DNA from: Tubulanus polymorphus
Lineage: Eukaryota; Animalia; Nemertea
DNA length: 64,000 nucleotides
Direction: 5' to 3'
Assembly (NCBI RefSeq): GCF_964204645.1
Contig: NC_134028.1
Location: 11,703,263-11,767,262 of the forward strand
Part shown: one piece after another, positions 1 through 35,373 of the stretch
Position numbering within the stretch: position 1 is the first letter of the stretch
Layout of the letters: each line of letters starts with the position of its first letter
Translations under genes and position numbers: made by a program
Notes under the pieces: generated by a model
The model's database searches: none
What the model was told of the DNA's origin: nothing
The model's input: the letters and a program-made list of their open reading frames with translations, nothing else

Positions 1-270
1 TTCAGAAGTATTTTCATTTTTAATAGTAGTAGTTTCAGAATTATTGATATTATAAATTTTATTTGATTTTTTATACCAACTACACCCAATCAAAATGAAT
101 ACAATTACAAATCCAGTTGTAAAATATAAATATTTATTAAATATTCTATTATCAGAAGGAGTAGAAATAACAATATTTTCACCATTTTTATTTACATCTT
201 TATTATTTATTTTTTCTTTTACAGCTTTTTAAAATTCTCTTCATTTAATTCCTAATTGCCGAGACCATTC
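1..270 (-). pseudogene. Small membrane protein remnant, homolog of 34999..35367
   Basis: WSRQLG motif and a hydrophobic FTTGFVIVFILIGCSWY-like segment on the minus strand; frame disrupted. Confidence 0.6.
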
Positions 271-874
271 AATTTGTTTCTGTGATCTCGGTTTTTTCTT
301 CACAGTTAATCCTTTCATCTCTTCCACTTCGCCCATTTATTGTAGAAAAATTTTTACTTTCAATATTTGAAAATGTTATAACTCCAGTTGATAATAATGT
401 CATAAATCCACCTAATTGAAATGATAAATATCCAATCCATTTATTTAATTCAGTCATAACTAAATAATCATTTTTTAAATCGGAATATAATCTATTTTCA
501 TCTTCAATTGGTAGCATATATTTACATAATTTACTATAACCTTTTACTACATTTTCTGATAACACATAGTTAATTCTAGCTATTCTCGCAGTTTCGTAAA
601 TCTTAAATAATTTAATAATTTGATCTGGTTTCATTGTATCTAATTCATTATAAGATAAATTTTTACCAATAAAAGTTTTACATTTTCCAGATGCTATTAA
701 TATTTCTAATTGATGTTTGCAATAAAGATAATATTCATAATTATTATTTGTTGTAACATCATTTAAAGCACCATCATCTGGAGTTAATTTTGTTTCTGTT
801 ATTCCTAAATCATCCGAAATTTTTTCAATTGGAACATCACTATTTTTAGATTTTATTTTCTTTTCACCTCCCAT
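269..874 (-). CDS. Polinton conserved hypothetical protein (homolog of 34407..35006)
   Basis: Shares YEYYLYCKH, LYSDLKNDYLVMTEL and STGVITFSNI blocks with copies B and C. Confidence 0.8.
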   Translation of the reverse strand: MGGEKKIKSKNSDVPIEKISDDLGITETKLTPDDGALNDVTTNNNYEYYLYCKHQLEILIASGKCKTFIGKNLSYNELDTMKPDQIIKLFKIYETARIARINYVLSENVVKGYSKLCKYMLPIEDENRLYSDLKNDYLVMTELNKWIGYLSFQLGGFMTLLSTGVITFSNIESKNFSTINGRSGRDERINCEEKTEITETN

Positions 875-1083
875 TCATATAACAAAAAATCAATTGTGTT
901 GTTGCAACTAGAATTTAACGAGAATGTAACTGAAAATATACTAGATTAACAAGCTGGTTTAAATATTATTGTTTTTATTTATTTCATCTGTTGAATTTCA
1001 TTTGATTTTTATTTCAACTACCAATTACTAGAATTCAAATAGAATGTTACTTAAGATATAATAGATTAGCAAGCTAGTTGAAT

Positions 1084-1692
1084 TTAAATAAATTCATATT
1101 TAAATGGATGTTGTAATCGAAATAGTAATTTTGATCTTTTATTATTTTTCAATTTATCCACATATTCATTATGTAAATCATGTGGAATAATATCATTTTC
1201 CTCAAGTGCATTTTTCATCGATTTTCTATCTTTATAGTAGAATAAAACTAAAAATCTAATGTTTTCTCTAAAATCTTTAACAATTGAATTATATTTTTGA
1301 TTTATAACCCATGTTGTTATCCCAAAATGTCTCCCAGAGAAAGCTAAATAGCATAACTCACTTTCTCTAACTTTTGAATCATGTAGATTAGCACAATCAT
1401 CTATGATAAATAATGTATTAGATCCTTTATATATATCAATTGCTATTTTAATACAATTATCTAAATTTTCTTTAACTGTTTTAGGATCTAATATAATAAA
1501 TTTATTATTTCTAGTAATATTTCTATCATAAGGTTGATTAACTTCATATGTTGGACAAAATAATACTATATTATCAAAATAGTTTTTATAAATAGTTTCT
1601 AATAAATCTAATATAAAATAAGTTTTTCCACAATTTGTTACACCAGAAATTTACATATTATGAGGCTCAAATATAAATAATTCCTTATTCAT
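1084..1692 (-). pseudogene. A32/FtsK-like packaging ATPase, copy A, with nonsense codon
   Basis: Walker A GVTNCGKT, Walker B FIIDD and SGRHFG read on the minus strand; stop codon just before Walker A. Confidence 0.85.
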
Positions 1693-2810
1693 TTATATAT
1701 TTTTAATTTTACTTGATAATAACCATTCATTAAATTTATCTGGCCATCCAACCCATTTTACTAAAGAATATTTTTTTCTATTAACAGTTTTTGTTTTCAA
1801 TACTTTTTCAAATTTATATTCTTGTTCTAGATTTTCAGTAGTTAAACTTAATTCTTCTTCATAAAAATACCCATCAACTTCTTCACCATCTAAATCTTCT
1901 AATTTATAGACATATGGTTTTGTTGTTATTACCTTTTTTATTTTATATATTTCTCTAGTAAAATTACGATCGTATCCTTTGTCAAATATCTTTCTATACT
2001 TAGAAATTCTAACATTTTGACCAACTTTAAATTTAGGTTCACTAAAATCATCTACAAAAAAATGCTCCATATAAATTATTTCAAACAATTTCAGCATTTT
2101 CAGGTTTTCTAGCGTCGATAGGTTTCATTCCAACAGAAGAATGATAAGAATTATTATAACCTTCCATCAATTTTGGTAAAACATCAATCCATTTAAAAGT
2201 GTTATTTGCTGTAAAATATTTCCACATTCTTGTTCTTAATGTTCTATTAAATCGTTCAACAACTACCGTTTTTTTATCCGATTTTATTGAAAATTTTCAA
2301 TATTATGATCATCTAAGATTTCAAGAACTACTGAATTATCAAAGTCTTTTCCATCATCAAATTGTATTCTTTCTGGCTTTATTTTACCACCTGAAAATTT
2401 TTTTTACACTAATGATGTTTGTGCAGCATCTTTTCTATAAAGTGGGAAGCTCCATACATAACGACTAAAAATATCAATTATGTTCAAGATCCACCAATAA
2501 TCATCATTATCTTTCTCAACATTTTTCATATCAATTAAATCTCCTTGCCACTGTTGATCTACATAACTTAGAAACCATAGTTTTACGAGTTTTATATTTT
2601 CTAACAATTTTTTTAAGTGTTGTATATGTTGGTTGTTCTAACATAAATTCACTTATATCTTTATACTTAACTAAATTTTGTGGGATTATCTTATCTAATT
2701 TATCTTGTTTTACTTGACGCCATATATTTTTGGTAGAAGAATAAGCAACCGAACGCTCAGGGTTGTAATATAAATTTCTTAAATATTGTTCTTTAGTATT
2801 AGGAGTTTTA
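1693..2810 (-). pseudogene. Polinton rve integrase with C-terminal chromodomain, copy A, frameshifted
   Basis: QWQGDLIDM, IDIFSRY, VERFNRT, PKFKVGQNVRIS and chromo-like LVKWVGWPDKFNEW fragments. Confidence 0.88.
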
Positions 2811-2827
2811 ATTTTAACTTTATATTT

Positions 2828-3680
2828 CTAATATTGAATACTATCTAATTGAGAATTTATAATATTTAATTGCGCGTCAGATATAATATAAATGTGCATT
2901 TTGAAATTTTTGTCTCCTTTTTTCTTTTTCATGAATAATTGTATTCCATCGTTAGTGTTCTGTAATTTCTTCCGAGAACCATGTAATGAATTATCCTCTG
3001 TTGTTCTCAAATTTAACCATAATGCTTATTTATTGCCGGTATAGTAATCAATTTGATTAATATTACAATTTTCAGATGATTTTACGTTTTCATTCATAAA
3101 ATGTTTTCTAATTTCTGGCCACTGATCTATCATTCTCATTCCTTGACAAAATATTTTATTTGCTATACCTTCAATAGTTATTTCTACCTTTGATATTCCA
3201 GGATTAAAATAATTATTTACATTTATTGCACCATTAGAATATGTTGCAATTGTAAAAAGTATTAATATACCTTTAATAGCTCTTCTTGGGAAGTTAATAT
3301 TCTCATTAATTATTTCATCATTTGCATTGATAGTTACAGTTTTAAATTTATCAATATAATCATATAATAATGAAAATCCTTGATAATATTGAGTTTGAAT
3401 TATGCTAGCAATATTTTCATAAGTTACTGTATCATATTCTAAACATATATTCGATAATCTATAACCCATATCTTTAACTACACTTGATAGCACAATTTCA
3501 TTAACAGGAGCAAATGTTATTTCGAATATAATATCTTCGTGTATAGCATATTTATATAAAGGCGCATTATAATTTATCAATTCAAAATCTAATGGAATTT
3601 TATATTTGCTTCCATAAATCTTTTTCATCAAATTATCTATGCCATTAGTTACTATTGCGTTTTCAGCTTCTGATCTTAAT
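2828..3680 (-). pseudogene. Putative major capsid protein, C-terminal part, copy A
   Basis: Nearly identical to 38397..39287 and 17833..18543. Confidence 0.75.
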
Positions 3681-3735
3681 TAGGGTTTCTGCTGCCTCGG
3701 CAGAAATCCTATTGGATTCCTGCTGATTATTATTT
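3680..3735 (+). mobile_element. End of a HINE/DINE-1-like (non-autonomous Helentron) element
   Basis: TAGGGTTTCTG...CAGAAATCCTATTG hairpin followed by CTGCTGATTATTATT; the same motif recurs at 62329-62440. Confidence 0.5.
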
Positions 3736-7312: not shown

Positions 7313-7358
7313 TCGTTAATCAAGAATTTATTCCGTCTTAATCTCGGTCTTAATCGAC

Positions 7359-7949
7359 AGTAATAGGGGTTTAGTTGTTCTATACCAAAGGTCGAACGGT
7401 CGAGCTCATTAAAAAACAAATATTAAAAGTAATTTAAAACTATAATATAATTTCATAGCCGTGTGCATTTTATATTTTAACTAAATATTTATTCTAAGAT
7501 ATTAATAATTTAAATTTTAAAAGCATATTGTATTAAATCAATTGGTCGCTCCGCTTCGCTGCCGCTCCACTCCGCGACAAATTGATTTATTTACAATACA
7601 CAAATTCATATAATCAAATATATTTTAATAATAATAATTATTCTATTATTCAACTGAAATACACACGGTTATGAAAATATATTATAGTTTTAAATTACTT
7701 TTAATATTTGTTTTTAATGAACTCGACCATTCAACCTTTAGTATAGAACAACTAAACCCCTATTACTCTTAAAATATTTATATATATGAATAACATTTAA
7801 ATTGACAGATTATTCAATATAAAAGTGTTAGTGAAGTGTGAGCTCTTATAGAATAGATATATAGATATATTTTAAACATTATTTCAATATTTATATTTGT
7901 ATGAGTTAGATTTTTAAACATTAAAAGTGTTAGTAAAGTGTGATTGAAA
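7359..7949 (+). repeat. Left TIR of copy B, including a terminal imperfect palindrome at 7359-7767
   Basis: Reverse complement of 25273-25881. The first ~110 nt are repeated in inverted form ending at 7767. Confidence 0.93.
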
Positions 7950-8010
7950 TAATACATATATAAATCATTGAACTTCTAAAATCAATTTAAAAAAAAAATT
8001 TACGATTAAA

Positions 8011-11000
8011 ATGGAAGCAAATAAGTACTACTGTTCAACATGTAATATCAATATAGATAAATCCCAAAAATCAAGACACAATAAAACTAAAACACATTTA
8101 GAGAATAAATTGAAACTAAAATATAAAGATGATATATTAGAAACTAAATTAGATGAATTAAAGAATGAAAAAGAAACATACAAATGTGATACATGTAATC
8201 AATCATTCAGTGATAAAAGATATTATAATGAACATTTAAAATCTAAAAGTCATATTAGAAATATGAATAATGATATTTTAGGTGAGGGTTATTTTGATAA
8301 TGATAACGGTAAGAAACATAAGACAATAAAAGAATAAGAAATAAATTAAACAATAAAAGACCATACATGGAAGATGTAAGAAATTATATTAATTCATTAG
8401 ATAATAAAAAAGATATAGAGATAACCGAAGCATATAAAAGTGATATTGGCCCAGCAGCTATTGAGTTTAAATTTCATAAAGGAAAAGCATTAGAAGAAAA
8501 TAAAAAACATTTAGAAAATATGAAAAATATTATAAAAATAATAACTGATGTTGAATACCCTAAAATTAGTATATCTTCTAAAGTAAAGTTTATAAAATCT
8601 GAAGATAAACCAATATATAATATAATCTTCATTCACAACATATTATATCTAAACAACATATAGATGATAAATTAGATAAATGTTATATTGAAGTAAAAAC
8701 TAAAATAGAAGAGAAATATTTTGAAGGATCAGGTTTAATATTTGATGAAATAATATTTATGACTTTACATGTTTATAACACAAAATATAATAAGTTAACT
8801 AAATCAAAACCAATTGATGAAAATAATGTATCATATTATAAAGAACCAGATATTGAAGCATCGAGTTATATTAAACTACCATTTAAAACGAATGCTGTAA
8901 TAAATGTACAAAATTTTGATGATAAATGTTTTCTATGGACAATTATAAGTTGCTTACATCCAACAGAAGATATTACACATAGTTTTAGATTATCTCATTA
9001 TAAACCATTTGAAAATAATTATAAGATAGATAATTATCCTGTTAGAATTAAAAACATCCCAAAAATAGAAAGAGATAATAATATTAAGATAAATGTGTTT
9101 TATTTACTCAAATTACCAAATACAAAAGGTAACAATATAAAACATTATACATTAGAACCTTTATACCTATCGAAAGATTATGATTCAAACGATGTTATAG
9201 ATATATTATATTATGAGAATCATTATATGTGGAATAAAGAATTGATTTATGTTTTAAATCAGAAAATGATTTTGATAATAAAATATATCTATGTAGAAAA
9301 TGTTTACATAAATTCAGAACTGAAAGTGCATTATTAAATCATAAACAATTATGTGAAAATCATGATTATTGTAAATTAGTTTTACCAAATGAAAAAGATA
9401 AAATATTAGAATTCAAAAAATATGATTACAAAAATAAAGTACCATTTGTAATATATAGAGATTTTGAATCATTAAGTAAAGAACTAACTGATCAAGATAG
9501 AAAAGAAATATATTATAAAAGAAAGAAATTAAATTCTAATGAAAATGATTTCTCAGAAGAACCACCAATAACAAATACAATTAAAAAGATTCATCAATCA
9601 GCTGCAGCTTTCGGGTTATATATTAAATCTGATTATCCAGAACTAATTAAAAGTGAATATTATCATTATAGAAATGAAAATGTTATCAATCATTTTTGTG
9701 ACTTATCAATTGAATATGAAATAAGATTTAGTAAATTATTGAATACAAATAAAGAAATTATAATGACAGAAAAAGATAAAGAAGAATTTGTGTTTGCAGG
9801 TAAATGTTATTATTGTGAAAAGATATTTAATTATGAAGATAAAAAAGTAAGAGACCATGATCATTTGAATGGAAAGTTTAGAGGCGCTGCACATGAGAAT
9901 TGTAACTTACAAGCTAAGAAAAAAATTAACTTTGTACCAGTTATATTTCATAATCTATCAGGATATGATGCACATTTATTTATCAAACAGTTATGCCTTA
10001 AAATAGAAGTAATCAATAATGAAAAAGAAAGATTAAATTCAAATAGATCAAAAGATAAAGTACCAACTTATAAATTTAAAATGTTAGCTAGAACATCTGA
10101 GAATTATATATCATTCCAATTTGGCTGCCTAAGATTTATAGATTCATATAGATTTTTAAACAGTTCATTAGATAACTTATCAAAATCATTAGTTGATGAA
10201 CTTAAAAAGGAACAATTTTATGATGAATTAAAAAATGAACATGTTAAAGATGGAGTTTTTGAAAGAACGATTAATATATGGAATCATTTTAGAATAAAAA
10301 ACTATGGTAAATTAGTAGATTTGTATCTAAAATCTGATGTTTTATTATTATCGGATATATTTGAAAGGTTTAGAGATGTAAATCTAAAATATTTCAATAT
10401 TGATCCATGTCATTGTTATTCAAGTACAGGATTAACATGGGATTGTGGATTAAAATTTACAGATATAAAAATGGATTTGTTAACAAATATAGATCAATTA
10501 TTATTATTTGAAAAATCTATAAGAGGAGGAGTTTCAGGTGTATTAGGAGATAGATATTTCAATGTAAATGATAACCCTGGATATAAGTTATTATATATAG
10601 ATGCAAATAATCTATATGGTTGGGCAATGATGGAACCACAACCTTATGGAGTATTTGAAATAAGTTAAGTTTTACAACATGAAAATAATGATAAATTTGA
10701 TTGGAAGAAAAGAATCCTAGATATTGCAGATGATTCAGATACTGGTTACTTCTTAATAATTATGTAGTACATTATAGAATGTTAAAGTTTTATCTAAAAC
10801 AATGAATGATCCTAAAAAAAGTACATAGATATATTTCATTTAGCCAATCTAAATGGTTAGAAAAATAATTAGATTTTAACACCAAACAGAGAACCGAAGC
10901 TAAAACTGATTTCGAGAAAGATTTCTTCAAGTTAATGAATAATGCATTCTATGGAAAAACTTGTGAAAATATTAGAAACAGAAATGATATTGAGTTAGTT

Positions 11001-11757
11001 AGTAATGGTAAAAGGATAAGGCATTTACAATCATATCCTAAGTTTTTAGGTAACAGAATATTTGATGAAAATTTAGCTGCAGTTAAAATGAGAAGAACAT
11101 CAATGAAATTTAATAAACCAATCTATGTTGGTGCTTCAGTTTTAGAATTATCAAAATTACTAATGTATGAATTCTATTATAATGTATTACAACCACTTTT
11201 TGGAGAAAAACATATAGAAATCTTATATTTTGATACAGATTCTTACATATTAAAGATAAAAACTAATAACATAACCGATGATTTAAAAACATTAAAACAT
11301 CATTTTGATTTTAGTAACTATCCTATACATCATGAATTGTTTAGCAATGATAATAAAAAAGTTCCCGGTAAATTCAAAGATGAATTAGGTGGCGAAGAAA
11401 TGATTGAATTTATTGATATTAGATCTAAAATGTATTCATATAAAACTAAAGAACATAAGGCTAAAAAGTTAAAAGGAATAACCAAAAGTGTAGTAGAAAA
11501 GAATATTCATTTCAAAGATTACATCAATTGTATATTCAATGAAGAAGGTAGAAAACATAAGATGAGATGAAGATCTGAAGATCATGAAATGTTTATTGAA
11601 GACATTGACTAGTCTAAACCCATTTGATGATAAAAGATATATTTTAGATGATGGAATTCATACAGTTGCTTATGGTTGTAATTTAGATGAATACTTAAAA
11701 TTTAAAAGAGAAGAAACAAAAGAGAACGAGATAATGAAAAGAATTCTAACGTGTTAA
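8011..11757 (+). pseudogene. Protein-primed family B DNA polymerase (pPolB) with N-terminal C2H2 fingers and an endonuclease-VII-like insert
   Basis: YIKLP/NVQN.DDKCFLW, DFES, RDHDHLNGKFRGAAHENCNL, FHNLSGYD, YLKSDV, SIRGG, YIDANNLYGWAM, KLMNNAFYGK, YFDTDS, FDDKR; several stops, frameshifts and two short deletions. Confidence 0.95.
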
Positions 11758-11786
11758 TCAAATTTTAATAAAAATATGTATTATAA

Positions 11787-12140
11787 ATGGAGAGTAAACA
11801 AGCAAACAGTGAGAACAACAAATCATTTCTAGATAGAATAAAAGATACTTCAAATGTCAAATCAGTAGATTATAAATTTAAGATGTTAAAAGAATTAATA
11901 ATCCATCAGAAATATCTAATTACAAATATGGATACAGTTACTAACAAATATGAAGATAAATTAGTTATACACTTAGAATATGAAGGATTAAAAGGAAATA
12001 CATATAAATTCAGAACATATTTACCAGATAGATTTCATAGATTATCAAGTGAAGAGCTAGAAGAATTATGTTCTGGAGATTTCTATTTCGTATAAAAAGG
12101 TAAGAATGAAAAGGGGCACCACGAAATAGATTTCGAATAA
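11787..12140 (+). pseudogene. Small hypothetical protein, possibly OB-fold
   Basis: ORF with TAAATG start; probable premature stop at 12093; beta-rich pattern ending YLPDRF. The fold is an inference. Confidence 0.4.
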
Positions 12141-12154
12141 AATATGTAAAATAA

Positions 12155-12615
12155 ATGGTGGAATTAAAAGAATACAGAATATTTGTAGATTCTAGAAGAC
12201 TTACAAATTATAAATCTCATAATTTACTAGTACAATTAGATAGAGAATTTAAGAATTGTGTTGATTTAAAATTAGTTAATATAAGTTTATGTAATTCTTT
12301 TTACAATGTATCGGATAAAACTATTGAACATAGTTTTTTTAATTCATGATAGAAATAAAAGTAAATGGTTTCATCTTTATCTTAAACCAGGATTATATAA
12401 TTTAGATACATTAGCGCAGGAAATTAATAGAAGAGCTCGGTTGAAAATGGGTGCATCTGCTGGATTTGGATAAAGACTGATTAAAAGTGATAGCTCCGAT
12501 TAAATAAGAATAAAATTAGGTAATGAAGATCAACATCAATTTCTAGTTAAAAAACCTTTAGCTAAAATTTTAGGAATAACCCCAGATGTAGGGATACGCA
12601 ATGCTGATGCTATAC
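12155..12615 (+). pseudogene. Putative minor capsid (penton) protein, N-terminal part
   Basis: IFVDSR...L.REFKN.V.LKLV...NSFYNV followed by LKPGYYNLDTLAQEI, a pattern typical of polinton/virophage pentons; cut by the duplication at 12616. Confidence 0.6.
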
Positions 12616-13979
12616 CAATGGTATTAAAAAAAGTATTTAAAATGGGAAGTGTTAATGTTGATAGATTTGGTATAAATGATATCTTAAAATTAACCTTAGC
12701 AGTTACTTTATCTAATTTAACTATTGATTATTAAGAAAAACAAAAATATATTCCTCCTATATAAATACATAATTATTTTACTAAATAAATGGCTTCTGCA
12801 GTTATAACTATTATCGGATCTGCAATTGTTAACGCTTAAGCATTTACTGGTGGTGGTTATTTATTTAAACATATTGATAAAAATGGATCATTAACAGAAC
12901 AAAAAAGACATAACTTAGCATTAGAGAAATATAATAAAGCAGCAGAAGAATATTGAGAAAAGAGACAAAACTATATGGATTATATTAACAAAGAATTATA
13001 TGATCAGAAGATTTCACATAGAGATTTTCAATCAGTTGATGATGCAATGAATTTATATAACGCGGTAACCAATAAAGAACAATTACATCTACATAAACCT
13101 ACAATATCAGACAAAACATGGTAAAGAAATAAGAATTAAACTAAATGATGTAATTACTAATTTAATAAGTAAATCATTTAACAATGCATCAATGATTAAT
13201 AAAGAAAATTATAATATAGAAAAAGTAATTGATTTAATTAAAACGCCTTTAGAATATTATGAATTAAATGAAGATGGAATTATTGATGATATTAAAAACA
13301 TATTATCCAAAATATATGATAATCATAAAAGTAGTAATGAAATAAATGTTGAAATAATCATAAATAAGATAACTAAATATTTTGATGATAGTAATTTTTT
13401 TGATAAATAAATAAGTGATAATAAGTGGATGATAACTGGATTATATAATGGAGCATTACTATCAGTTGGAACTGTAGGTTATTCAATGGTATTAAAAAAA
13501 GTATTTAAAATGGGAAGTGTTAATGTTGATAGATTTGGTATAAATGATATCTTAAAATTAACCTTAGCAGTTACTTTATCTAATTTAACTATTGATTATT
13601 AAGAAAAACAAAAATATATTCCTCCTATATAAATACATAATTATTTTACTAAATAAATGGCTTCTGCAGTTATAACTATTATCGGATCTGCAATTGTTAA
13701 CGCTTAAGCATTTACTGGTGGTGGTTATTTATTTAAACATATTGATAAAAATGGATCATTAACAGAACAAAAAAGACATAACTTAGCATTAGAGAAATAT
13801 AATAAAGCAGCAGAAGAATATTGAGAAAAGAGACAAAACTATATGGATTATATTAACAAAGAATTATATGATCAGAAGATTTCACATAGAGATTTTCAAT
13901 CAGTTGATGATGCAATGAATTTATATAACGCGGTAACCAATAAAGAAAAATTACATCTACATAAACCTACAATATCAGA
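12616..13979 (+). repeat. ~496-bp direct duplication (12616-13111 and 13484-13979)
   Basis: Near-identical sequence at an offset of 868, sharing the same stop codons. Confidence 0.93.
13411..13632 (+). pseudogene. Small hydrophobic protein
   Basis: GALLSVGTVGYSMVLKK...LKLTLAVTLSNL; start codon mutated; one internal stop. Confidence 0.5.
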
Positions 13980-14079
13980 TTATTATACCCCAAGTAATGA
14001 ACAGAAGAAGTATGAAATAATATGGATTTTAGGTGGAACTATTATTGTTATATTTGTAGCATATAGATTTACTAATTAG
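13657..14079 (+). pseudogene. Small membrane protein (hydrophobic N-terminus, helical middle, C-terminal TM)
   Basis: MASAVITIIGSAIVNA*AFTGGGYLF...EQKRHNLALEKY...IIWILGGTIIVIFVAYRF. Confidence 0.65.
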
Positions 14080-14100
14080 TAATTTTTTTTTGCTAAATAA

Positions 14101-14514
14101 ATGGATGATAATATTGATATTATTCCTCATAATATAAATAAAACTAAATTAAAAATATATTTAGAAAAACAAATATTAGAATTTGAAAGTGACTTAAAAG
14201 TTAAAAAGAAAAAATATTTAAAAAGTAAAATTATCTTATTATTAGTGGTTCGGTTACAATTAGTTCTGTCATAACATTTTTAGCAATATTCAGTCCATTA
14301 ACACCTTTAGCTATATCAATTGGCGTATTAGGTTTAAGTTCAAGTGTTTTAACCGGCATAAGTTCAAAATTGAATATAAAAAGTAATTAAGAAAAAATTA
14401 AAACTAATATAAAAGAAATTAATAAATTAAAAAATACGATTGATTATATAATAAGTTTAAACGGTCATATAACAGTTGAAGAAGATAAATTATTAAAAGA
14501 ATTAGTAAATTATT
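14101..14514 (+). pseudogene. Small two-TM protein
   Basis: TAAATG start; hydrophobic SVITFLAIFSPLTPLAISIGVLGLSSSVLTG; frameshifted. Confidence 0.5.
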
Positions 14515-14532
14515 AATTTTTTAATTATATAA

Positions 14533-15810
14533 ATGGGGTTTCCAAAAGCTTTCCAATATAATAAATCAATTAAATATAATATTCCTGCAATAGATTTTAG
14601 AAAAAATATTACATATAAAAATGTAGTTTTAAATTCATTAACTAATTTAGAAATTTATGTTACTGAATCACAGTTTTTTATTTCTAAAGTGGAAAATATA
14701 TTTAATACATATGAAGTTACTTTTACTCGAGATGAATATCATATATATAAAGTAAAATCCAATATGAAATATTGGCAGAATCAATTAAATTTTGCTGTTT
14801 ATTGTGCAACAACTGGTTGTGGTATAAGTTGGAATGATCATTTAAATAACTAAGATAAAAATTTGAAGTATTCTGATTTAAAATTAATTCACACAATATT
14901 TAGATTTCACATATATTTTCAAATCAGAATAATATTAAATGAATTAGAACGTCCTTTATCCGGATCTAAATATTTTAAAGAATTGGATAATAATATTAAT
15001 CTATCTAAGTTTTATAAAATATGTAATGAATTTAACATAAATATTAATTCCGATTTTAGAGCGCATGGTAAATTGCAAGGTGTTGGTGAAGAGTATGAAA
15101 TAAAAAGAATTTATTATATGCATAGAATTGGAGCTTATCATAATTATAAAATCGATAATAATAATGGTTGGGTTAATTTCATTTTAGAAAATGGTGAAGG
15201 TTTTAACAAATCAGGTATACAAAGAATAAATCAATCAATTAGAACTTATTTGATATGTATTTTAGGTGCGCAAGTTGAAACAAGATCACCAATAGTTGGA
15301 AATGATAACACTTCATTTGATACGCAGACACAATTCAAAGTATTATTTGAAGATTCCATTCATAATGATAAAAATAGATCTATTCCAGAAAACATTGTAA
15401 GATATCAAAATTATTTAGATAAATCACATATTACATTAAGTATTAAATATTGTATAGGTCCTAATCTATTAATTATTTCTAATGATTTAGTATTAAAGAT
15501 GGGAAACATAATTGGTTACAATAATCTAATTAAAACTGCAACAATAAATAATTCATTTGGATTAAATGATATAAATAAAAAGATTATTATTGCTCCAAAA
15601 TTAATGGAAGGTGAAAAAAATAAAAAACATATTCAATCACCTGAAACTAAAATTAAAAATATTAAATTGGTTAATGATTCTAAAATAAAAGATTACAATA
15701 CATCAGAAAAAATTAAAACTGATAATATTCAACATGACATAATTAAACTAAATGATGATAATAAATCCCATGAAAATGCTAAATTAGCTTTAACTTGTAT
15801 TATATTTTAA
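14533..15810 (+). pseudogene. Polinton-family hypothetical protein (~425 aa, one stop)
   Basis: ORFs 14533..14853 and 14863..15810 are in the same frame; YWQNQLNFAVYCATTGCG and FRFHIYFQIR motifs. Confidence 0.7.
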
Positions 15811-15833
15811 ATTTTAATTTTTTTATTATGTAA

Positions 15834-17278
15834 ATGGCAGAAGGCGGAGGAGATTTCGAAATGAAAAACATGGGAAATAATGATGATGCCAATACTAACG
15901 ATGATGATTATGTGTCTACTGATACTAATATTGATAATGATGATGAATCAGCATATAATTCTAATTCTAATTTAGCAGATAGTGGTTCTGAAGCCCCATC
16001 AACAGATGAATTTGATAGAAGAACTAGATCGAGAATAAATCCTGAAAATCAAGGTTTATCAAGACAAGATTTAGAAAATAAAGAATATATCTATAAATTC
16101 AAACCTATATTTGAAGATTCTGGATATAATATAAATGCCAGAGGCGCCAGACTTTCAGTACAAGAATTAAAACTTTTAGATAATGGTGAATATTATTATC
16201 ATTTGAAAGATGATTATTATATTAATATCACTTATAAACGTGAAAACAAAATATTAGCAGAATCAACTTTTAGTAATTTAGAACCATTTAGAATTAAAAG
16301 AATAAGTAATAATAGTAATGAAATAGAAGATGTAACAAAAGAAGAAATAAATCAAAATAAAAGAGTATTTAAACAAAGAATTAATGACTTATTTGAAACA
16401 ATCAAAAATAATTTAGAACCAGAAACAATTGCTGAAGAAGTTATTAATTCCAAAACTAGTAAACTTAAGTCAAACGAAGTTCAAACTGAAAAACTTTTAC
16501 CGAATGGATTACTTGATTCAACAGATCAAGAAATAGAAGCTTTAAGTATGTTTTCTAAAAAAACAATTAGAGAAATAATAAGTATACGAAATGAAGCTGA
16601 TAAAATTGCGCACGATAAAAATATTAGATATAATAAAATTAAACCTTTAGAAAATAAATTATTTGTCACCAGAAAAGAATTAGAACAATTAAAATTAGAT
16701 AGAGAATTTAAAGTTATTGAAGAAATTGAATTAAAAAAAAGAAATGCATATTTAGAAAAAGAAATTGATGATTTAGAATATAACATAGAATTTCAGAAAG
16801 AAAAAATGAAATTATTATTAAAATCATATGATTATTGTATTAATAGATTAAAGTTGTTGTTAAAGAGTTAATACTAAAACCAAATTCTGACATATCACTA
16901 AAAGATAGAATAAAATTATTAAAGTTATTATTATTAAAGTTTGAAGGAATAACAATTCTTTCAATTCTAACAGCTGTAACTATGGTATTTACAACAATTG
17001 GTTTAGTTATATCAAATGCTTTAAAATCTACTCCTACTCCCAATAAACCAGATAAACCTCCAAATAACAATTCTATACAAGATAAAGTTAAAGATGGTTT
17101 AAAGAAATTTGCAAAATATTTATGGGAACTATCTAAAAAATCTGCTGCAGCTTTACCAGGAATTATTGCATCAATTGTTGGTTTTATTTTAAAATCTGCT
17201 GGAAACATTATTAACTTTGCTGCTGAACATATTATTTTATTTTTAATTACAGTTGTAAGTGCAATTATTTTGGGTTAG
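15834..17278 (+). pseudogene. Large protein: acidic N-terminus, coiled coil, C-terminal membrane segments
   Basis: ORF 15834..16871 is frameshifted into GITILSILTAVTMVFTTIGLVIS...AAALPGIIASIVGFIL...IILFLITVVSAIILG. Confidence 0.7.
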
Positions 17279-17347
17279 TAAATATGATATCAAAAAATAT
17301 CAAGTAAACATGATAAAAAATAAATAATTAATTTTTTTGTTGAATTA

Positions 17348-18603
17348 ATGAGTGGGAGTTATATCAATCCTTCTAAGAATCATAGAATATCTAATGCTAT
17401 TAAAGCAGAAAGATCACATCATATAATTACCCATAACCCTTCTAATATTAATCCTGATGAAACTTTATATGTTAGAATTCCTCGATTAACACAAAATACT
17501 TTTTATGTTCCAAATAGTATTTATTTATCAGCCGATATAAAAGTAACCGGTAATAATAATTATTATGTTGTCGATAATGTTGGAAGATATTTGATTAAAA
17601 AATTAACAATAAAGATCGGTCCAGAAACAGTTTTCTCATTAGATGATTATAATTTATTTATGCATTATAAAGATTTATGGTTAACTAAATAATATGATAT
17701 TTCAAGGCATCCGATCAGAAAACCAAAATAAATTAAGATCAGGAGCTAATGACGCAATAGTAACTCGTACCGCAGATAATTTGATAAAAAAAGATCTATG
17801 GAAGCAAATATAAAATTCCATTAGACTTTAATTTGATAAATAATAATGCACCTTTATATAAATATGCAATTCAAGAAGATGTTATATTAGAAATAACATT
17901 TGCTCCTGTAAATGAAATTGTATTATCCAGCGTTGTTAAAGACATGGGTTATAAATTATCGAATATATGTTTAGAATATGATACAGTAACTGATGAAAAT
18001 ATTTCAAGTATAATTCCAACTAAATACAATCAAGGATTTTCATTATTATATGATTATATTGATAAATTTAAAACTGTAACTATTAATGCAAATGATGAAA
18101 TAATTAATGAGAATATTAACTTCCCAATAAGATCTATTAAATGTATATTAATATTTTTTACCATTGCAACATATTCTAATGGTGCAATACAGGTTAATAA
18201 GTATTATAATCCTGAAATAACAAAAGTAGAAATAACTATTGAATGATTAGCAAATAAAATATTTTGTCAAGGAATGAGAATGATAAATCAATGGCCAGAA
18301 ATTAGAAAACATTTTATGAATGAAAAAGTGAAATCATCTGAAAATTGTAATATTAATCAAATTGATTATTATACCGGTAATAAATATGCATTATGGTTAG
18401 ATTTTAGAACAACAGAGGATAATTCATTACATGGTTCTGGGAAAAAACTACAGAACACTAAATATGGAATACAATTATTCATGACAAAGAAAAAAGGAAG
18501 CCTAAATTTCAAAATGCATATTTATATTATATCTGATATCTGATATTAAATATTGTAAATTCTCAAGTAAATTCTTCAAATTCTAAGTAGTGTTATGTAT
18601 TAA
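17348..18603 (+). pseudogene. Putative double-jelly-roll major capsid protein, copy B
   Basis: Three collinear fragments totalling ~410 codons; beta-rich; the most conserved gene among copies A, B and C; THNPS, IPLDF and LWLDFR motifs. The fold is inferred. Confidence 0.72.
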
Positions 18604-18635
18604 AATTTTAACTTTAATAAAAATTTATATAATAA

Positions 18636-19508
18636 ATGGAAGGAGGTAAAGTATATAAACATATTCCATACATCGATACACATGAAAATAATGATGGTTT
18701 ATATTATGTAATACCTTGTAATATAGCTTTGATATTCGATCCTATTTTCAAAATTTATAAAACTAAACTAATAGAAATCGATAATAATAAAAGTGAAGTT
18801 GTTGATAATTTAAGTAATGTAATTGATAATAATGCAATACCTTCTACATCTAATAATGCAATACCTTCTACATCTAATAATGCAATACCTTCTACATCTA
18901 ATAATGTAATACCTTCTACATCTAATAATGTAATACCTTCTACATCAAATAATGAAATAATATTAAATATTAGTGAAAATAGAAATTATTGTGATTATTG
19001 TAAATGTGAATTTTCAAACGCCCCATCAAATTGGAATAAACATATGAATACAAAGGTACATATTACTTATGTAATAGAACGTGTTGGTTTAAGAGAATTT
19101 ATAGAACACCCATTTAAATATGTTACAAAGTTTTTTTCAAATAAAAATGTAAATGGTAAACAATTATATGAAGATTTATCATTAGCAACACCTAATAAAG
19201 ATGAATTAGATTTAACCGATGCTAATAAAATATTAGGATCAAACATTGTAAATGAAATATTAGGAGCAAACACTAAGAAAGATGATAATGAAAATATAGT
19301 TACAGATAAGCATATTGATAATAAAGATTCTATGAAACATAAAGTAGAAAATAAAGATATAGTTGAGATGACTAATAAGTATATCAATAAACCAATTATT
19401 TATGAAGATACGGTAGAGCATTTGAATAAATTGTTAGGGCCTGATGATGAATTGGAGAGTGATGATGAAAGTGATTCAGAAATTAATTATCTAACACTCA
19501 AAAAGTAA
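18636..19508 (+). CDS. C2H2-type zinc finger protein with NN(A/V)IPSTS repeats and an acidic tail
   Basis: YCDYCKCEFSNAPSNWNKHMNTKVH; intact 290-aa ORF with TAAATG start. Confidence 0.75.
   Translation: MEGGKVYKHIPYIDTHENNDGLYYVIPCNIALIFDPIFKIYKTKLIEIDNNKSEVVDNLSNVIDNNAIPSTSNNAIPSTSNNAIPSTSNNVIPSTSNNVIPSTSNNEIILNISENRNYCDYCKCEFSNAPSNWNKHMNTKVHITYVIERVGLREFIEHPFKYVTKFFSNKNVNGKQLYEDLSLATPNKDELDLTDANKILGSNIVNEILGANTKKDDNENIVTDKHIDNKDSMKHKVENKDIVEMTNKYINKPIIYEDTVEHLNKLLGPDDELESDDESDSEINYLTLKK
18827..18953 (+). repeat. 24-bp coding tandem repeat, 5 units
   Basis: AATAATG(C/T)AATACCTTCTACATCT repeated. Confidence 0.9.
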
Positions 19509-19877
19509 TAAAGGTTGAAAATTGTATGAAATAATAGTAAATAAAAAGGGGTTTTTAAGTATTTAAGGTATTAATACAATCTAATAAAATCTAATACATA
19601 AAATATCTTATTTTATAAACTTATATTCATATGGAAATTGAAGCCTCAGAAGTAATTTTGAACCTTTATTATTTTCAAACTTATTCATATATTAGTTGAA
19701 AAAATAAAAATAAATTGGTTGAAAATTGTATAAATAATATTTATTTTAAAAAAGGGGGTTTTAAGTATTTAAGGTATCTAATAGGATATCTAATACATGG
19801 TAGGTATTAGGGTATCTAATAGGGTATCTAATACATAGGTAACTAATAGGGTATCTAATACATAGGTATATAAATAG

Positions 19878-20485
19878 TTATTTTATAAATTTATATTTAT
19901 ATGGAAATTGTAGTCTCAGTAATAATTTTGAACCTTTATTATTCTTTAATTTATTCATATATTCATCATGTAATTCAGTAGGTATAATTTGATTTTCAAT
20001 GATTGTTGCATAGATTTTCTATTTTTGTTATAACATTAAACTAGAAATCTTATATTCTCCCTAAAGTCTTTAACAATTGAATTATATTTTTGATTTAAAC
20101 CCCATGTTGTTATCCCAAAATGTCTTCCAGAGAAAGCTAAATAACATAACTCAGTCTCTCTAACTTTTGAATCATGTAAATTTGCGCAATCATCTATAAT
20201 GAATAATGCATTTGATCCTTTATAAGTATCAATTGCTATTTTTATACAATTATCTAAATTTTCTTTTACTGTTTTAGGATTTAATATAATAAACTTTTTC
20301 ATCTTAACTATATCTCTATTATATGTTTTATTCATTTCATAAGTAGGACAGAATAATATTATATTATCAAAATGATTCTTATAAATAGTTTCTAACAAAT
20401 CTAATATGAAATGTGTTTTACCACAGTTTGCTACTCCAGTAACTAACATATTATGTGGTTCAAATATAAATAAATCTTTATTCAT
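19878..20485 (-). pseudogene. A32-like packaging ATPase, copy B, frameshifted
   Basis: GVANCGKT, FIIDD, SGRHFG; collinear with the intact 36458..37069. Confidence 0.9.
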
Positions 20486-21570
20486 TTATTCTTTTAATTT
20501 TACTAGATAAAATCCATTCATTAAATTTATCATCATATCTTTTATATTTCACCAAAGAATACTTTTTTATCTTCTAAGAAGAGTTTTTGTTTTCAATACT
20601 TTTTCTATTTTATATTCTATTTCATCTGGATTTGGTACAAGTGATAATTCTTGTTCATAGAAATAACCTAATATTTCTTCGTCTTTTAGATCTTCTAGTT
20701 TATAAACAAATGGTTTAGTTAATATTATCTTTTTAATCTTGAATATTTCTTCTGTAAAATTAGGGGTATAACCTTTATAAAATGTTTTTCTATATTTAGA
20801 TATTCTAACGTGTTGTCCAATTTTAAATTTAGGTTCGCCGAAATCGTGTGTAACAAATGCTCCATATAAATTATTCCATACTATTTCTGAATTATCTTCT
20901 TTTCTAGCTTGTATAGGTTTCATATTTATAGAACTATGTTTATATTATAACCTTTCACTAAATCATCTAATACATCGATATATTTGTATGTTTCATTAGC
21001 AGTAAAATATTTCCACATTCTAGTTTTCAATGTTTTATTAAACCTTTCTATAATAGATGCTTTTTTATCTGAGTGTGTTGAAAAATAATCTACATCGTTA
21101 TCAGATAATAGTTTTTTGAAATGTTTGTTATAAAATTCCTTACCTTCATCAAATTGTATCTTATCTGGAATAGCTTCTTTAAATATTGATTTAAAAGCAT
21201 TTGTTACTTCTATACCAGTTTTATTTTTGATTGGAATTAACCATGCGTATCTACTGAATATGTCTATAACATTTAATATCCAGAAATATCCTTTGTTGTG
21301 TTCTTCTAAGTTCTTCATATCAATTAAATCAGCTTGCCATTGTTGATCTATATATGAAACCATAACTTTTCTTGTTAAATAAGTTTTATCCATTTTCTTA
21401 TGGATTTGATATGTTGGTTGATTTTGTAACCATGATATCAATTCACTATATTTTATATTACCATTTTCTTTATCAGATTTAATTTTATTCCATAATTCTG
21501 AAACGTTAGAATATGATACTTCACTTTCTGGGTTGTAATATAAATCCCTTAAATATTGTTCTTTTTTCAT
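20478..21570 (-). pseudogene. rve integrase with chromodomain, copy B, frameshifted
   Basis: QADLIDM, QFDEGKEF and IERFNKTLK (DDE); collinear with 35374..36465. Confidence 0.93.
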
Positions 21571-21576
21571 CTTATT

Positions 21577-21972
21577 TTAATCCATTAATAATAATTTAGA
21601 TTTAGTTTCAATGGCTTTATGATTTGACTTATTTTCTGGTATAATAGGTTTATTATCATTGGAATCATCTTTATCATCAGATTTGAATTTTGATTTATAT
21701 ATTACACCGGATAATATAATAACTGTTACTAATCCAATTGTAATATATAATTTATAATTACTTCCACTATTAGAAGAATCAGATGGATTATTATTTGAAT
21801 CAATATCAGATAATTTCTGTGATTCATTTACATCAGTTAATTTATTTTTCTTAGCTTTTTTTAATTCTGAAGATCTTTTACCTAATTCTCTTGCCCATTT
21901 AATTTGTTTCTCGGATCTAACCTTTTTCTTAACGTCACTGTGTGGGCGCCGTACGGCAATACCATCACTCAT
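21577..21972 (-). CDS. Small single-TM protein
   Basis: Basic N-terminus and TM LYITIGLVTVIILSGVIY; intact homolog at 34999..35367. Confidence 0.75.
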   Translation of the reverse strand: MSDGIAVRRPHSDVKKKVRSEKQIKWARELGKRSSELKKAKKNKLTDVNESQKLSDIDSNNNPSDSSNSGSNYKLYITIGLVTVIILSGVIYKSKFKSDDKDDSNDNKPIIPENKSNHKAIETKSKLLLMD

Positions 21973-22578
21973 TTATTTTAGTTAATTTTTGTTCTGATTC
22001 ATTTTCTGTTTCGCCGTTTGGTTGTAGTACATCTGTTTCGTTCTTACCTGATTTATATTCCATAGGCTTGATATTCGAAAATGTTATGACGCCAGTAGAA
22101 ATTAATGTCATTATTCCTCCTAATTGGAATGAAGTGTATCCAACCCGGTTTTGTAATTCTGTCATAACTAAATAATCATTTTTTAAATCGCTATATGATT
22201 TATTTTCATCATCAATTGGTATAATCCAGTTACATAATTTAGAATAACATTTTATAATACCATCACTTATAGAGTCGTTTATTCTAGCTAATCTAGCTTC
22301 TTCATAAATCTTAAAATATTTTATTACTTTATCTGGTTTTATAGAGTCTAATTCTTGAAAAGTTATTATTTTTCCCAAGAAATTCCCAAGAAAGATTTCC
22401 CGCCAGCAATTAGTAATTCAAGATGGTGTTTACAATATAAATAGTATTCATAATTTATATTGTTATTAACTTGAATATTATTTTCAATTTTGGTCGGAAT
22501 ATCCTTATTATCACTAATACCTAAATCATCTAATGTTTTTTCAATGCTGGTATTATTCTTACTCGATTTCTTTGACAT
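21965..22578 (-). pseudogene. Conserved hypothetical protein, frameshifted (homolog of 34407..35006)
   Basis: Two fragments collinear with the intact gene in copy C. Confidence 0.8.
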
Positions 22579-22824
22579 TTATATTAGATAAATTTAATAA
22601 GAAAAATATTATAAGTATTATAAAATGATACCAGTATCTCTTTAGATTAATACTAGCTTAGTTAAAGTTAAAGAATTTTAGTATTAGTTATTGCTTTTTT
22701 AGTATTTTTTATTTGTGATATAAAGTATTCTTTTTTGAAAAGAAAATATAAAAAAGCAATAACTAATACTAGCTAGTTGAAGATATGTAATTTTTAATAC
22801 TTTTTATTTAAAATCTATTATTCT

Positions 22825-23491
22825 TTAACCACTCATTAAAGATTCAACGTATTGTTCAATATTTGGATCATTGTTCCATTGTTCAATAAATTTCTTTGCC
22901 TTTGTTAACTGTTCTAAATATAACTGTAAATCTAGTTTATTAGATTTGATTTGATTTTCTTTCTTTTCAAGAGGTCTTAAATTTTTCCAACCCCAAATAA
23001 GTTTTTTTATTGTATTCATCATTCATGTTAAATTTAGATATCGGTAACGTATGATCAATATGAAAATAATCTCCATAATTATCTATATTCATTTGACTAT
23101 CGAATTGAAATATAATCCATGATTTGAGAAATTCATCTGAACAACCCAACAAATTAGATAATGTTTCTGAATGTGTTTCTTTGTTGAATAATTGTGTTAA
23201 TCTAGATCTTAAGCATTGTTTCAATCTAAAATTAAGATCTGTTTGATATCTTTCTCTCATATATTCTGCCATATAATAATTATAATGTTCTATATTATCT
23301 TCTCGGTATTGTTTGTTATATAGTTTAGTGCAAGTTTTACAGCAATATTGAAAACCATCTTTGCTAATCTTACGCTTAGTAAATTCTGTTAATGATTTAT
23401 CTAATTCACACTTAGAACACTTCTTGTAGTATATATTTATAACACCAGTGTTATTTGTAATATTGATAGTTTGTGGTTGTTCTGGTTCCAT
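22825..23491 (-). pseudogene. HNH-type endonuclease with N-terminal CxxC...CxxC finger, frameshifted
   Basis: CSKC...KDG...CKTC, HIDHTLP and NLRPL...EN..KSNK. Confidence 0.75.
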
Positions 23492-23923
23492 TTATTATAC
23501 GTATTTTTTTACTAAATTGGTTAATATTTTAGAATCCTCTTCCATTTCTTCGACCAACGTCATCCTTTTTCATTCCTCGCTGGTCTTGATAAGTCGTTTC
23601 GATTCCTTGATATCTAAATCATACCACTGGGCAAAACCGCTCTTATAGGAGCGCTTTTGCTTAATGCGCATGCGTTAATCATAATTATATATTCATTCTG
23701 TAAATTCTGTAAAATAGAAACGACCGACATAAAGTATCAAAACGTGTTCGCATTAGGCAAAACCGCTCTTATAGGAGCGGTTTTGATCAATGCGCATCCG
23801 CTAATCATAATTTAAACAACTGAACATAGAACATTCACCAAGCATATTTACACAATACATATACAAGTATGTTCGATCGTTGTATTGACAAAATTTATAG
23901 TTTCAACTAATACATCATTTGAT

Positions 23924-24667
23924 TTATAATTCCAACCAGAACTTTTCAATTTCTGGATCATTGACAAGCATTTTTTCAATATCGTTTAAATATTTTACTA
24001 TATCAGAAAATGACAAACTTAAAAATTGGAATCTTTTATATGTAATTAATCTCCCCCCTACGCTTCTTAATTTTCTTTCATACCCAGCACTAATACCTAT
24101 ATATTCTTTAACCCAAGACGCCCAAGAAATCCCCGCAGTTTGTTTATAAAACATTAAAAATCCCCTATTTAAACAATCTCCGAAAATGATATAATCCCAT
24201 AAATGCTTTGCTTTTTTAAATAACAAGGTTCTATAATTTTTTTTAAATTAAACGGTTATTTCATTAAATGATGTTACACCTTCTATTTCTTTAAAACTTA
24301 CATCTTTTTCATTCGATAATTTTGATTTTAAAAACTTATTTAACTCATTTCCACCAATTTTCTTTTTAGTTTTTGTTCCTTTTAGTCTCAACAATATTTC
24401 TACATTGGTTGTTGGTCTTTTCGGTAATGATGTTACGCTTGATTGCTGGTTTTCTATTATTTTTTCTAAAATTAATGTCATTTCTTGGTGGTAATATAAA
24501 TTTTTTTTAACTTCTAACGTTTCGCCGTCTATATCTAAAGATTCTTTTACTTCAACACCCATTTCCATCGGTTCGTCTTCCTTCATTTCGGTTGGTTCGT
24601 CTTCCTCCATTTCGGTTGTCCTCTGAGAATTAAGAGTACTTCTTGATACACACGACATTTTATTCAA
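23924..24667 (-). pseudogene. Accessory hypothetical protein (two fragments)
   Basis: Adjacent same-strand ORFs; an N-terminal remnant (RESIEMEDKTL) is present in copy C at ~33310-33429. Confidence 0.55.
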
Positions 24668-25272
24668 CTAAAAGATATCAGCGGTAGAACAGGAACTGCG
24701 ATATTAAATGATATAAATATTTTCAAGTCTATCGCTTCTAATTATTATAACTTATTATAGTTCAAGTTATTATCTATCTAACGTAAAATAGAATTAACTG
24801 TAACTGTAGTTGTCAAAAGCACTTAAAGGTTTCATATTTAATAGCCCTAATAACTACAAAAAACAGTACTTACATTTAGATTTAGAATTGTAAACTATAA
24901 ACTCCTAATTTCGTTTTGAGAGATAGAATATCCTAAGCGTTATGTTACAGCGTCTATTCAGTTCCAGTGCGATTTCGAAATGAACACGTCGTCGATTATG
25001 CCACGTCATCTAGTTCCGGCACACCTTCTAGAATGTTCTACACGTTTGTGATTATGACGTGTCATCTCTATTCAGAGTTCCGGTACACCTTCTAGAATGT
25101 TCTACGCGTTTGCAATATTATGTCTCATATGTCTCGGCGTCATAGTAACAGCTGTAACAGCTGTGAATTTATTGATTTATTCAATAGTTCATTACATGAA
25201 ATGTATATAGGCTCAAATAGAATCATGTTCTAGTATAAACAGCTATGTATTATATCATGTATATATGTATGT

Positions 25273-25881
25273 TTTCAATCACACTTTACTAACACTTTTA
25301 ATGTTTAAAAATCTAACTCATACAAATATAAATATTGAATGGTGTTTAAAATATATCTATATATCTATTCTATAAGAGCTCACACTTTACTAACACTTTT
25401 ATATTGAATAATCTGTCAATTCAAATGTTATTCATATATATAAATATTTTAAGAGTAATAGGGGTTTAGTTGTTCTATACTAAAGGTTGAATGGTCGAGT
25501 TCATTAAAAACAAATATTAAAAGTAATTTAAAACTATAATATATTTTCACAGCCGTGTGTATTTCAGTTGAATAATAGAATAATTATTATTATTAAAATA
25601 TATTTGATTATATGAATTTGTGTATTGTAAATAAATCAATTGGTCGCGATAGCGAAGCGGAGCGACCAATTGATTTAATACAATATGCTTTATAGGGTTA
25701 GGGTTAATACAATATGCTTTTGAAATTTAAATTATTAATATCTTAGAATAAATATTTAGTTATAATATAAAATGCACACGGCTATGAAAATATATTATAG
25801 TTTTTAATTACTTTTAATATTTGTTTTTTAATGAGCTCGACCGTTCGACCTTTGGTATAGAACAACTAAACCCCTATTACT
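25273..25881 (-). repeat. Right TIR of copy B, including a terminal palindrome at 25454-25881
   Basis: Reverse complement of 7359-7949. Confidence 0.93.
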
Positions 25882-31860: not shown

Positions 31861-31866
31861 GCTAAG

Positions 31867-32287: not shown

Positions 32288-32309
32288 CGTAAAAAAATAT
32301 GTATAATAA

Positions 32310-35367: not shown

Positions 35368-35373
35368 AATAAG

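Follow-up and report, generated by a model that had tools for sequence, protein, structure and literature searches.

Two Polintons of the nemertean Tubulanus polymorphus end in long imperfect palindromes that are predicted to fold into hairpins and keep one fixed orientation. The feature is real and family-wide, and the terminal palindromes are probably functional. Replication of these elements likely still starts by protein priming. The reading that we tentatively put first, with confidence short of even, is that replication is protein primed and that the 3′ end of the displaced strand folds back locally to rebuild a duplex origin, instead of forming a panhandle.

Anatomy and folding of the element ends

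The window, which is the whole 64,000-nucleotide stretch of DNA analyzed here, contains two complete but decayed Polintons, B and C, and a truncated third copy, A (1..3681, minus strand), which has no terminus inside the window. Element B occupies 7359..25881 (18,523 bp, with genes mostly broken), as delimited by its TIRs, TSD, and gene content. It is flanked by ATCGAC (7353..7358 on the plus strand, partner at 25882-25887), and its left TIR (7359..7968, plus strand, 610 nt) and right TIR (25254..25881, minus strand, 628 nt) are 91% identical. Element C, at 31867..43142 (11,276 bp), is internally deleted and lies in the opposite orientation to B. Its TSD is GCTAAG (31861..31866 on the plus strand, partner at 43143-43148), and its TIRs of 452 nt (continuing to 32318 on the left) and 448 nt (beginning at 42695 on the right) are 94% identical. 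Both complete elements (2/2) have a 6-bp TSD and 5′-AG...CT-3′ termini, their ends reading AGTAAT, which is an imperfect trinucleotide repeat. The terminal palindromes, annotated like the two elements without a strand, correspond only to the outer portion of the TIRs, into which the inner side of each palindrome runs on. In B, the left palindrome (7359..7767, 409 nt) is composed of an outer arm, a branched center, and an inner arm, and the right one (25454..25881, 428 nt) is oriented as the left one. In C, the left (31867..32055) and right (42954..43142) palindromes are both 189 nt long and again oriented alike. The four mapped end coordinates in the first-pass annotation proved exact, as judged from the occurrence of AGTAATAGGG on both strands. 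Within the window, it is present on the plus strand solely at 7359, 25454, 31867, and 42954, and on the minus strand solely at 7767, 25881, 32055, and 43142. A composite transposon made of two MITE-like end units was rejected because the TSDs flank whole elements only.

DNA folding bears out the description of these ends as imperfect palindromes. The folds of 7340-7900 (B left, z -15.4) and 31867-32200 (C left, z -18.8) were each equaled in stability by 0/100 shuffles, and the first base pairs with the last in 8/8 folds (four ends, two strands each). Consequently, the 3′-OH of the strand ending CCCTATTACT is predicted to be paired and to point into the element, as originally proposed. This 3′-terminal strand folds 9-10 kcal/mol better than the other strand in 4/4 ends. 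A sliding fold over 190 nt placed the C ends at the top and missed the B ends, the B arms being too far apart for that window size. A host-side palindrome at 53425-53580, which bears no relation to the elements and reaches -39 kcal/mol at that same fold size, illustrates that palindromes per se are not unique to these ends.

Each end possesses an outer-type and an inner-type arm, with the outer-type arm first and an identical loop polarity in 4/4 ends. The inner arm has lost a motif that the outer arm carries. The proposal that structure rather than sequence is conserved holds in part: the symmetry is kept in both B and C, but the sequence is partly shared, since the first 10 nt and the outer-arm motif are common to the two elements (45/57 columns identical). 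Within the first 56 nt, 9/10 aligned differences between B and C are altered in both arms. Together with five mirror pairs found in raw reads (below), this upholds the expectation that the hairpin structure is family-wide and that its stems covary.

The arms are imperfect in a patterned way. Transition mismatches are fixed in both ends of B (positions 28, 35, 39, 47, and 108) and in both ends of C (positions 26, 28, 35, and 47), and those at 28, 35, and 47, as well as a 1-nt bulge, are common to B and C though the flanking bases differ. All distinct fixed mismatch positions (6/6) read G.T on the 3′-terminal strand and C.A on the other, a modest bias of 1 in 64 if the positions are independent, and two mismatches private to B show the opposite bias, with G.T on the 5′ strand. 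The G.T bias could stem from selection for wobble pairs or, if a strand is exposed, from C-to-T damage to it, and under either cause it points to a single-stranded 3′ strand. CpG decay alone was rejected as the cause of the arm mismatches, 3/5 fixed C/T sites in B lying outside CpG (by eye).

Other features lie in or near the palindromes. The last four bases of the C TSD (31861-31866) are identical to those bordering the inner arm, and the palindrome reaches 4 bp into host DNA, which is probably chance. The center of the B right palindrome (25675-25725) is directly duplicated over a short stretch that surrounds two TTAGGG-like units (near 25693). No other doublet of this kind occurs in the window, and it may reflect telomerase-type healing of a break in the hairpin center, or chance. 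Internal repeats are found in B and C at 12616-13979, 18827-18959, 33485-33995, and 38010-38186; B has a 496-bp near-perfect duplication, both elements have 24-nt coding repeats, and C has 115/152-nt tandem repeats. Between the elements are broken LTR-retrotransposon-like pieces (5466-6222, 29329-31686, and 43082-48018, BEL/Pao-like by eye), among which repeats of 670-690 bp occur at 6427, 26957, and 28818. These adjacent retroelements, along with animal names among the integrase matches, point to an animal host.

Raw reads and related Polintons

Population evidence comes from raw-read run X5 of the same species, of which 12% was read and in which frequencies are unphased; the Logan contigs X1-X3 are too fragmented to span an end. 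The depth is 6 on the B flank and 22-27 on the C flank, and reaches ~1,400-1,600 at the B hairpin center and up to ~2,970 on the C outer arm. Comparison of element and flank depth leads to an estimate of roughly a hundred to several hundred such ends in the genome. At C, 1,765 reads run from the outer terminus into diverse host flanks, and no break at the inner terminus is among the best six breaks listed (the smallest of which has 190 reads, with 131 further rows). The depth at this inner terminus falls from 875 to 750, i.e., by 14%, whereas an even flip/flop mix would halve it. For B, 569 reads break at 7359, and the depth goes from ~1,900 to ~1,750 across 7767. The inverted (flop) isomer thus represents at most about 15% of the ends in reads, which report integrated copies only. 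With 0/4 ends inverted in the window, the flip/flop isomers raised by the first-pass annotation are rare or absent among integrated ends.

The reads extend the covariation seen between B and C. Among 40 of the 75 variant rows, five pairs of mirror positions vary at matched, unphased frequencies (43/46, 36/42, 21/19, 38/42, and 20/25%), and several rows in the same set of 40 have no partner. The position-28 mismatch is repaired in 29% of reads (32028 A>G). Shorter hairpins of ~120-150 nt are also present, their centers being different yet again self-complementary, and the loop polarity is identical in 10/10 rows that have a loop (by eye, among the 12 rows listed of 51). In many copies, the inner TIR (about 7780-7970) is deleted and the hairpin retained, with losses of 150-190 nt; the two largest deletion joints are 7797-7961 (463 reads) and 7802-7971 (213 reads). 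Such deletions beside a retained hairpin show that the hairpin, not the long TIR, is what is kept. Reads that switch arms within the stem are few (70 in two joints for B, 27 in three joints for C) and may be inverted centers, arm conversions, or library artifacts. No long outer-type arm joined to interior DNA stands out among the read rows listed.

We found 108 related loci via their integrase or pPolB and recognized an end in three of them, L047, L035, and L006. As L047 and L035 were spotted through their hairpins, 3/108 is not an estimate of frequency. Both are distant pPolB Polintons with an integrase and an ATPase. L047 has a 211-nt hairpin (33-251, z -23) located 8 nt inside an AGTAGT-type terminus, and L035 a 150-nt hairpin (15330-15485, z -10) located 6 nt inside such a terminus, the last 8 and 6 nt being unpaired. 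Neither of the two exhibits the 3′-strand folding bias. Further coding content includes a 2OG-Fe(II) oxygenase in L047 and a PC4-like domain in L035. These extra ends suggest that the feature has been overlooked in Polinton surveys. L006 has plain TIRs without a hairpin, and the closest loci (L015, L016, and L017, with integrases 63-85% identical) stop short of an end. Scanning viral contigs with a single integrase protein yielded no usable match. Two candidates were discarded: the single end-motif scan match in L001 has no inner copy and was judged chance, and the fold-back in L008 is polymerase-like coding sequence at a contig end, a probable assembly artifact (by eye). A 184-nt palindrome lies between the integrase and pPolB of a viral contig (L002:4657-4840); it starts ACTACT and ends AGTAGT, an end-unit arrangement in reverse, and is possibly an end-to-end junction.

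Gene content and the predicted terminal-protein domain of pPolB

The Pfam scan covered 30 ORF pieces of degraded copies. The pPolB gene of B, broken into several frames (8011..11570, plus strand), comprises C2H2 fingers, a TP-type motif at 8723, OTU-type motifs at 8921 and 9218, an endonuclease VII-like insert at 9805, and the polymerase. PF03175, the protein-primed family B polymerase, is above cut-off in the polymerase pieces of both B and C. The endonuclease VII-like domain matches PF02945 (E 4e-5), and B retains an intact nuclease motif in it; searching the PDB with the insert sequence returned 0 hits. The motif recurs in 16/24 related loci tested, irrespective of any known hairpin end, and was not found in the hairpin-ended L047 and L035, so the insert is not tied to hairpin ends. 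B also contains pieces of a broken major capsid protein gene (17348..18543, plus strand; a weak Capsid_N match, E 7.5e-4, below cut-off), a partial ORF for an A32-type packaging ATPase (20036..20485, minus strand; PF04665 above cut-off), and two ORF pieces of an rve integrase (20567..21570, minus strand; PF00665). C encodes a 363-aa rve integrase with a chromodomain (35374..36465, plus strand; PF00665 and PF00385) and a 203-aa A32-type ATPase (36458..37069, plus strand; PF04665). Among the 30 ORFs of these degraded copies, several of which stayed without an assignment, the scan found no HUH Rep/NS1 nickase-helicase, no A22-type resolvase, and no Pfam match for a Ulp1/adenain maturation protease or a minor capsid protein. 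The gene beside the integrase-side TIR (32310-32969, plus strand, and 22967-23491, minus strand) shows Cys pairs by eye and has no Pfam match. By eye, it also displays an HNH-like motif, which we take to mark a candidate second nuclease.

As for the N terminus of pPolB, we modeled the unchanged 330-residue N-terminal stretch of the C protein with 98 relatives, which gave a pLDDT of 88. In the model, residues 1-127 comprise a sheet plus two helices, and helix 2 is connected to the last strand by a Gly-Ser-Gly loop. This predicted terminal-protein (D1) domain (41933..42316, minus strand) contains a candidate linking Ser (codon 41983-41981), which is present in 94/96 non-gap rows of the 99-row alignment. 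In a Foldseek search, the top rows are Y-family polymerases (best E 0.011, none at E<=0.001), and realignment to Y-family little-finger domains superposes 107 residues with a Z of 9.4 and an RMSD of 2.6 Å. Similarity to the Y-family little finger and the placement of the Ser are the published criteria for PRD1-like terminal proteins, according to the available text of PMC11071308. On the strength of this model, C pPolB is predicted to keep the TP (D1) fold with its linking Ser. The domain that follows, a predicted vOTU-type domain (41495..41785, minus strand, from Cys codon 41785 to His codon 41497), has a Cys in 97/97 rows at the start of the first helix and a His in 94/97 at the fourth strand, as expected for vOTU, and gave no structural or profile match. 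B pPolB carries the same TP and OTU motifs as C. A profile search with the N terminus returned zinc fingers and noise only, an Atlas search one unnamed match at 0.81, and folding the TP part from its sequence alone produced a poor model (pLDDT 55).

Replication models and known systems

Any replicon that uses protein priming has to restore a duplex origin on the strand it displaces; a panhandle is the usual model for this, with direct evidence described as lacking in the available text of PMC11886824. In the reading that we tentatively favor, whose steps beyond the anatomy we infer and whose TP and OTU domains are predicted, TP-pPolB would initiate at the outer arm and displace one strand. The 3′ arm of that strand would pair with its inner copy 100-400 nt away, not with the other end 11-18 kb off. 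TP-pPolB would then start on the folded 3′ arm and copy arm, loop, arm, and interior, which would preserve orientation and mismatches without a nick. The 3′ arm may be trimmed and re-extended on the inner arm, repairing the tip and keeping the terminal 25-27 bp of both arms alike. On a side path, the paired 3′-OH may be extended into the element, yielding snap-back and palindromic products. Local fold-back with TP initiation would make the inner TIR dispensable, and unpaired tips such as those of L047 and L035 harmless or helpful.

Fold-back combined with protein priming is consistent with the fixed orientation, the retention of a predicted TP, the 3′-strand bias, the covariation, and the dispensable inner TIR. 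It also suits the 8 and 6 unpaired nt of L047 and L035, phi29 origins being strongest at 6 unpaired nt when the non-template strand is present (PMC4150772, available text). However, a 5′ overhang, as the fold-back would have, makes protein-primed initiation at phi29 origins markedly worse according to the same text, and the 3′ base is fully paired in B and C, hence self-priming should compete. A panhandle of TIR against TIR is also far more stable than two hairpins (-597 vs. -258 and -431 vs. -184 kcal/mol), so that kinetics alone favors the local fold. Moreover, the orientation is that of integrated copies, and an integrase could pick one isomer out of a flip/flop pool. The asymmetry is not universal either, given the position-28 repair and the two private B mismatches, and both the Foldseek E values and the unphased read frequencies temper the case.

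A close rival, possible but rather doubtful, is a hybrid cycle in which the first strand is protein primed and the paired 3′-OH of the displaced strand self-primes the second, giving a hairpin-closed duplex and head-to-head dimers. A nick confined to the boundary of the outer arm, made by either the rve integrase or the endonuclease VII-like insert, would free a correct 3′ end and thereby keep the orientation, similar to certain parvovirus ends. The 3′ base is indeed paired in 4/4 ends, and phi29 polymerase readily extends such ends and TP-primes poorly on them, a recessed paired 3′ end being a good DNA primer for it (PMC4150772, available text). This, and the better folding of the 3′ strand, is what survives of the self-priming proposed initially: the ends are compatible with self-priming, and the data do not support self-priming or hairpin caps as a substitute for protein priming. 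Also in favor of the hybrid cycle are the motif that the outer arm holds and the inner arm is missing, the intact nuclease motif in B, and the single form in which certain bocaparvovirus ends are found (PMC8242256, available text). The cycle requires, however, a site-specific nick. L047 and L035 leave 6-8 nt unpaired and have no endonuclease VII-like motif, which among relatives occurs regardless of hairpins, and long joints of outer-type arm to interior are not prominent among the listed read rows.

Alternatively, although we consider it unlikely, the main role of the palindromes might be in double-stranded form, either as cruciforms or as signals that are bound during excision, integration, or packaging. 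The four-way junction of a cruciform at an integrated end would lie at the border with host DNA, and a nuclease that cuts such junctions could release the element there. The palindrome starts at the exact first base of the element, and an endonuclease VII-like domain is present. The fact that rve integrases are not known to have excision activity also counts in favor of this alternative. Mismatches in vaccinia hairpins serve packaging and not DNA synthesis (PMC8956199, available text). A cruciform folds both strands, however, leaving the 3′-strand wobble bias unexplained, and among relatives the nuclease motif does not go together with hairpin ends. Solo-hairpin footprints would also add host-flank breaks at the inner terminus, and such breaks are rare. 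Equally unlikely in our estimation is a broader combination, in which a Polinton lineage would couple TP priming to obligatory hairpin self-priming and a one-sided nick, and use the same palindrome as a host-boundary cruciform for self-excision. If true, this TP/hairpin/cruciform cycle would lie between adenoviruses and parvoviruses, and would explain how Polintons with only an integrase exit the genome.

That the palindromes are a by-product, one past template switch having duplicated the terminus inward and inter-arm copying keeping the arms alike without selection, is improbable. Copying alone yields mirror changes, a few reads do switch arms, and L006 has TIRs without a hairpin. On the other hand, B and C share mismatch positions and a bulge despite differing flanking bases, centers of varied length and sequence are each self-complementary with constant loop polarity in the 10/10 loop rows listed (by eye), the hairpin outlasts deletions in the neighboring TIR, and it recurs in distant Polintons. 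Least probable of all is the strong form of the first-pass annotation, in which TP-independent rolling-hairpin replication or poxvirus-like covalently closed ends replace protein priming: the size, mismatches, and paired 3′-OH resemble parvovirus and poxvirus ends, and such a model has been proposed for Halocafeteria elements (bioRxiv 10.64898/2026.07.28.741278, available text), but pPolB retains the predicted TP fold along with the Ser, Cys, and His, the flop isomer is rare or absent, the tips of L047 and L035 are unpaired, and neither a Rep nor an A22-type resolvase was found among the 30 ORFs scanned.

The first-pass annotation was aware of no such description for Polintons; for related elements, the idea has been published. 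In its available text, that preprint, of July 2026, describes palindromes inside TIRs beside the TSD in endogenous virophages (subtypes 1, 2, 5, and 6) and PLV subtype 4 of Halocafeteria seosinensis, and proposes hairpin priming. It is the one direct precedent in the literature covered on Polintons, adintoviruses, virophages, and linear plasmids; Kapitonov and Jurka 2006, Pritham 2007, Repbase reports, and supplements fall outside that scope and may mention palindromic TIRs. The words "palindrom" and "hairpin" are absent from the main texts of surveys of vertebrate Mavericks (PMC8097293), nematode Polintons, and adintoviruses (PMC8502044), the last of which does not link Beta PolB to endonuclease VII in its main text, and such ends are not described in the available portions of 10.1101/2022.05.25.493380, PMC11296320, 10.1101/2022.07.28.501842, 10.1101/2023.08.22.554363, and 10.64898/2026.10.13.758929. 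Polinton replication and chromosome exit have been modeled, not shown, and the ends of this family provide a defined short substrate with which protein priming, self-priming, and nicking could be told apart using oligonucleotides.

Compared with known systems, as portrayed in the available text of each source, B and C are closest to animal Polintons/Mavericks (PMC8097293) and adintoviruses (PMC8502044), with which they share TIRs of several hundred bp, a 6-bp TSD, AG...CT ends, pPolB, an rve integrase, an A32 ATPase, a capsid gene, and, in B, a length of 18.5 kb. They differ in having a palindrome of 120-430 nt at the start of the TIR and in that the end motif is AGTAAT instead of (AGT)2 or (AG)3, which are common in vertebrate Polintons, other motifs being known (PMC8097293). 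The Halocafeteria virophages and PLV also have TIR palindromes next to the TSD and rve integrases, but in a protist host, with a single stated length of 52 nt and mostly non-pPolB replicases; here, palindromes of 120-430 nt accompany pPolB and a predicted TP, and covariation and fixed orientation were measured. The range of terminal palindromes, which covered protist virophages and PLVs that use other replicases, thereby comes to include pPolB Polintons, contrary to the association made in the preprint. The TP-capped telomeres of Streptomyces (PMC13685816) similarly combine a 5′ terminal protein with a palindromic 3′ strand folding back over a few hundred nt, but there replication begins at an internal site and Tap/Tpg patch the ends, whereas the present elements are eukaryotic, integrate, encode a pPolB fused to a predicted TP, and have one long hairpin. 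Adenovirus, PRD1, and phi29 (PMC11886824 and PMC4150772) are likewise TP-primed strand-displacement replicons that need a duplex origin on the displaced strand, but have simple ITRs, whereas here the duplex can be rebuilt within one end. Casposons (PMC4046053) are integrated pPolB-encoding elements too, some with palindromes inside their TIRs, but they are prokaryotic, use a Cas1 integrase, and have palindromes described only as internal. Parvovirus and poxvirus ends (PMC8242256 and PMC8956199) share terminal hairpins of 100-400 nt, conserved mismatches, and structure kept more than sequence; in contrast, the elements studied here revealed no HUH Rep and no even flip/flop mix, keep a predicted TP, and integrate with a 6-bp TSD. 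What is new is the occurrence of long one-way hairpins alongside a retained (predicted) terminal-protein domain, and the population evidence against flip/flop resolution; the feature is a variant of the Polinton end and not a replicon of a new kind.
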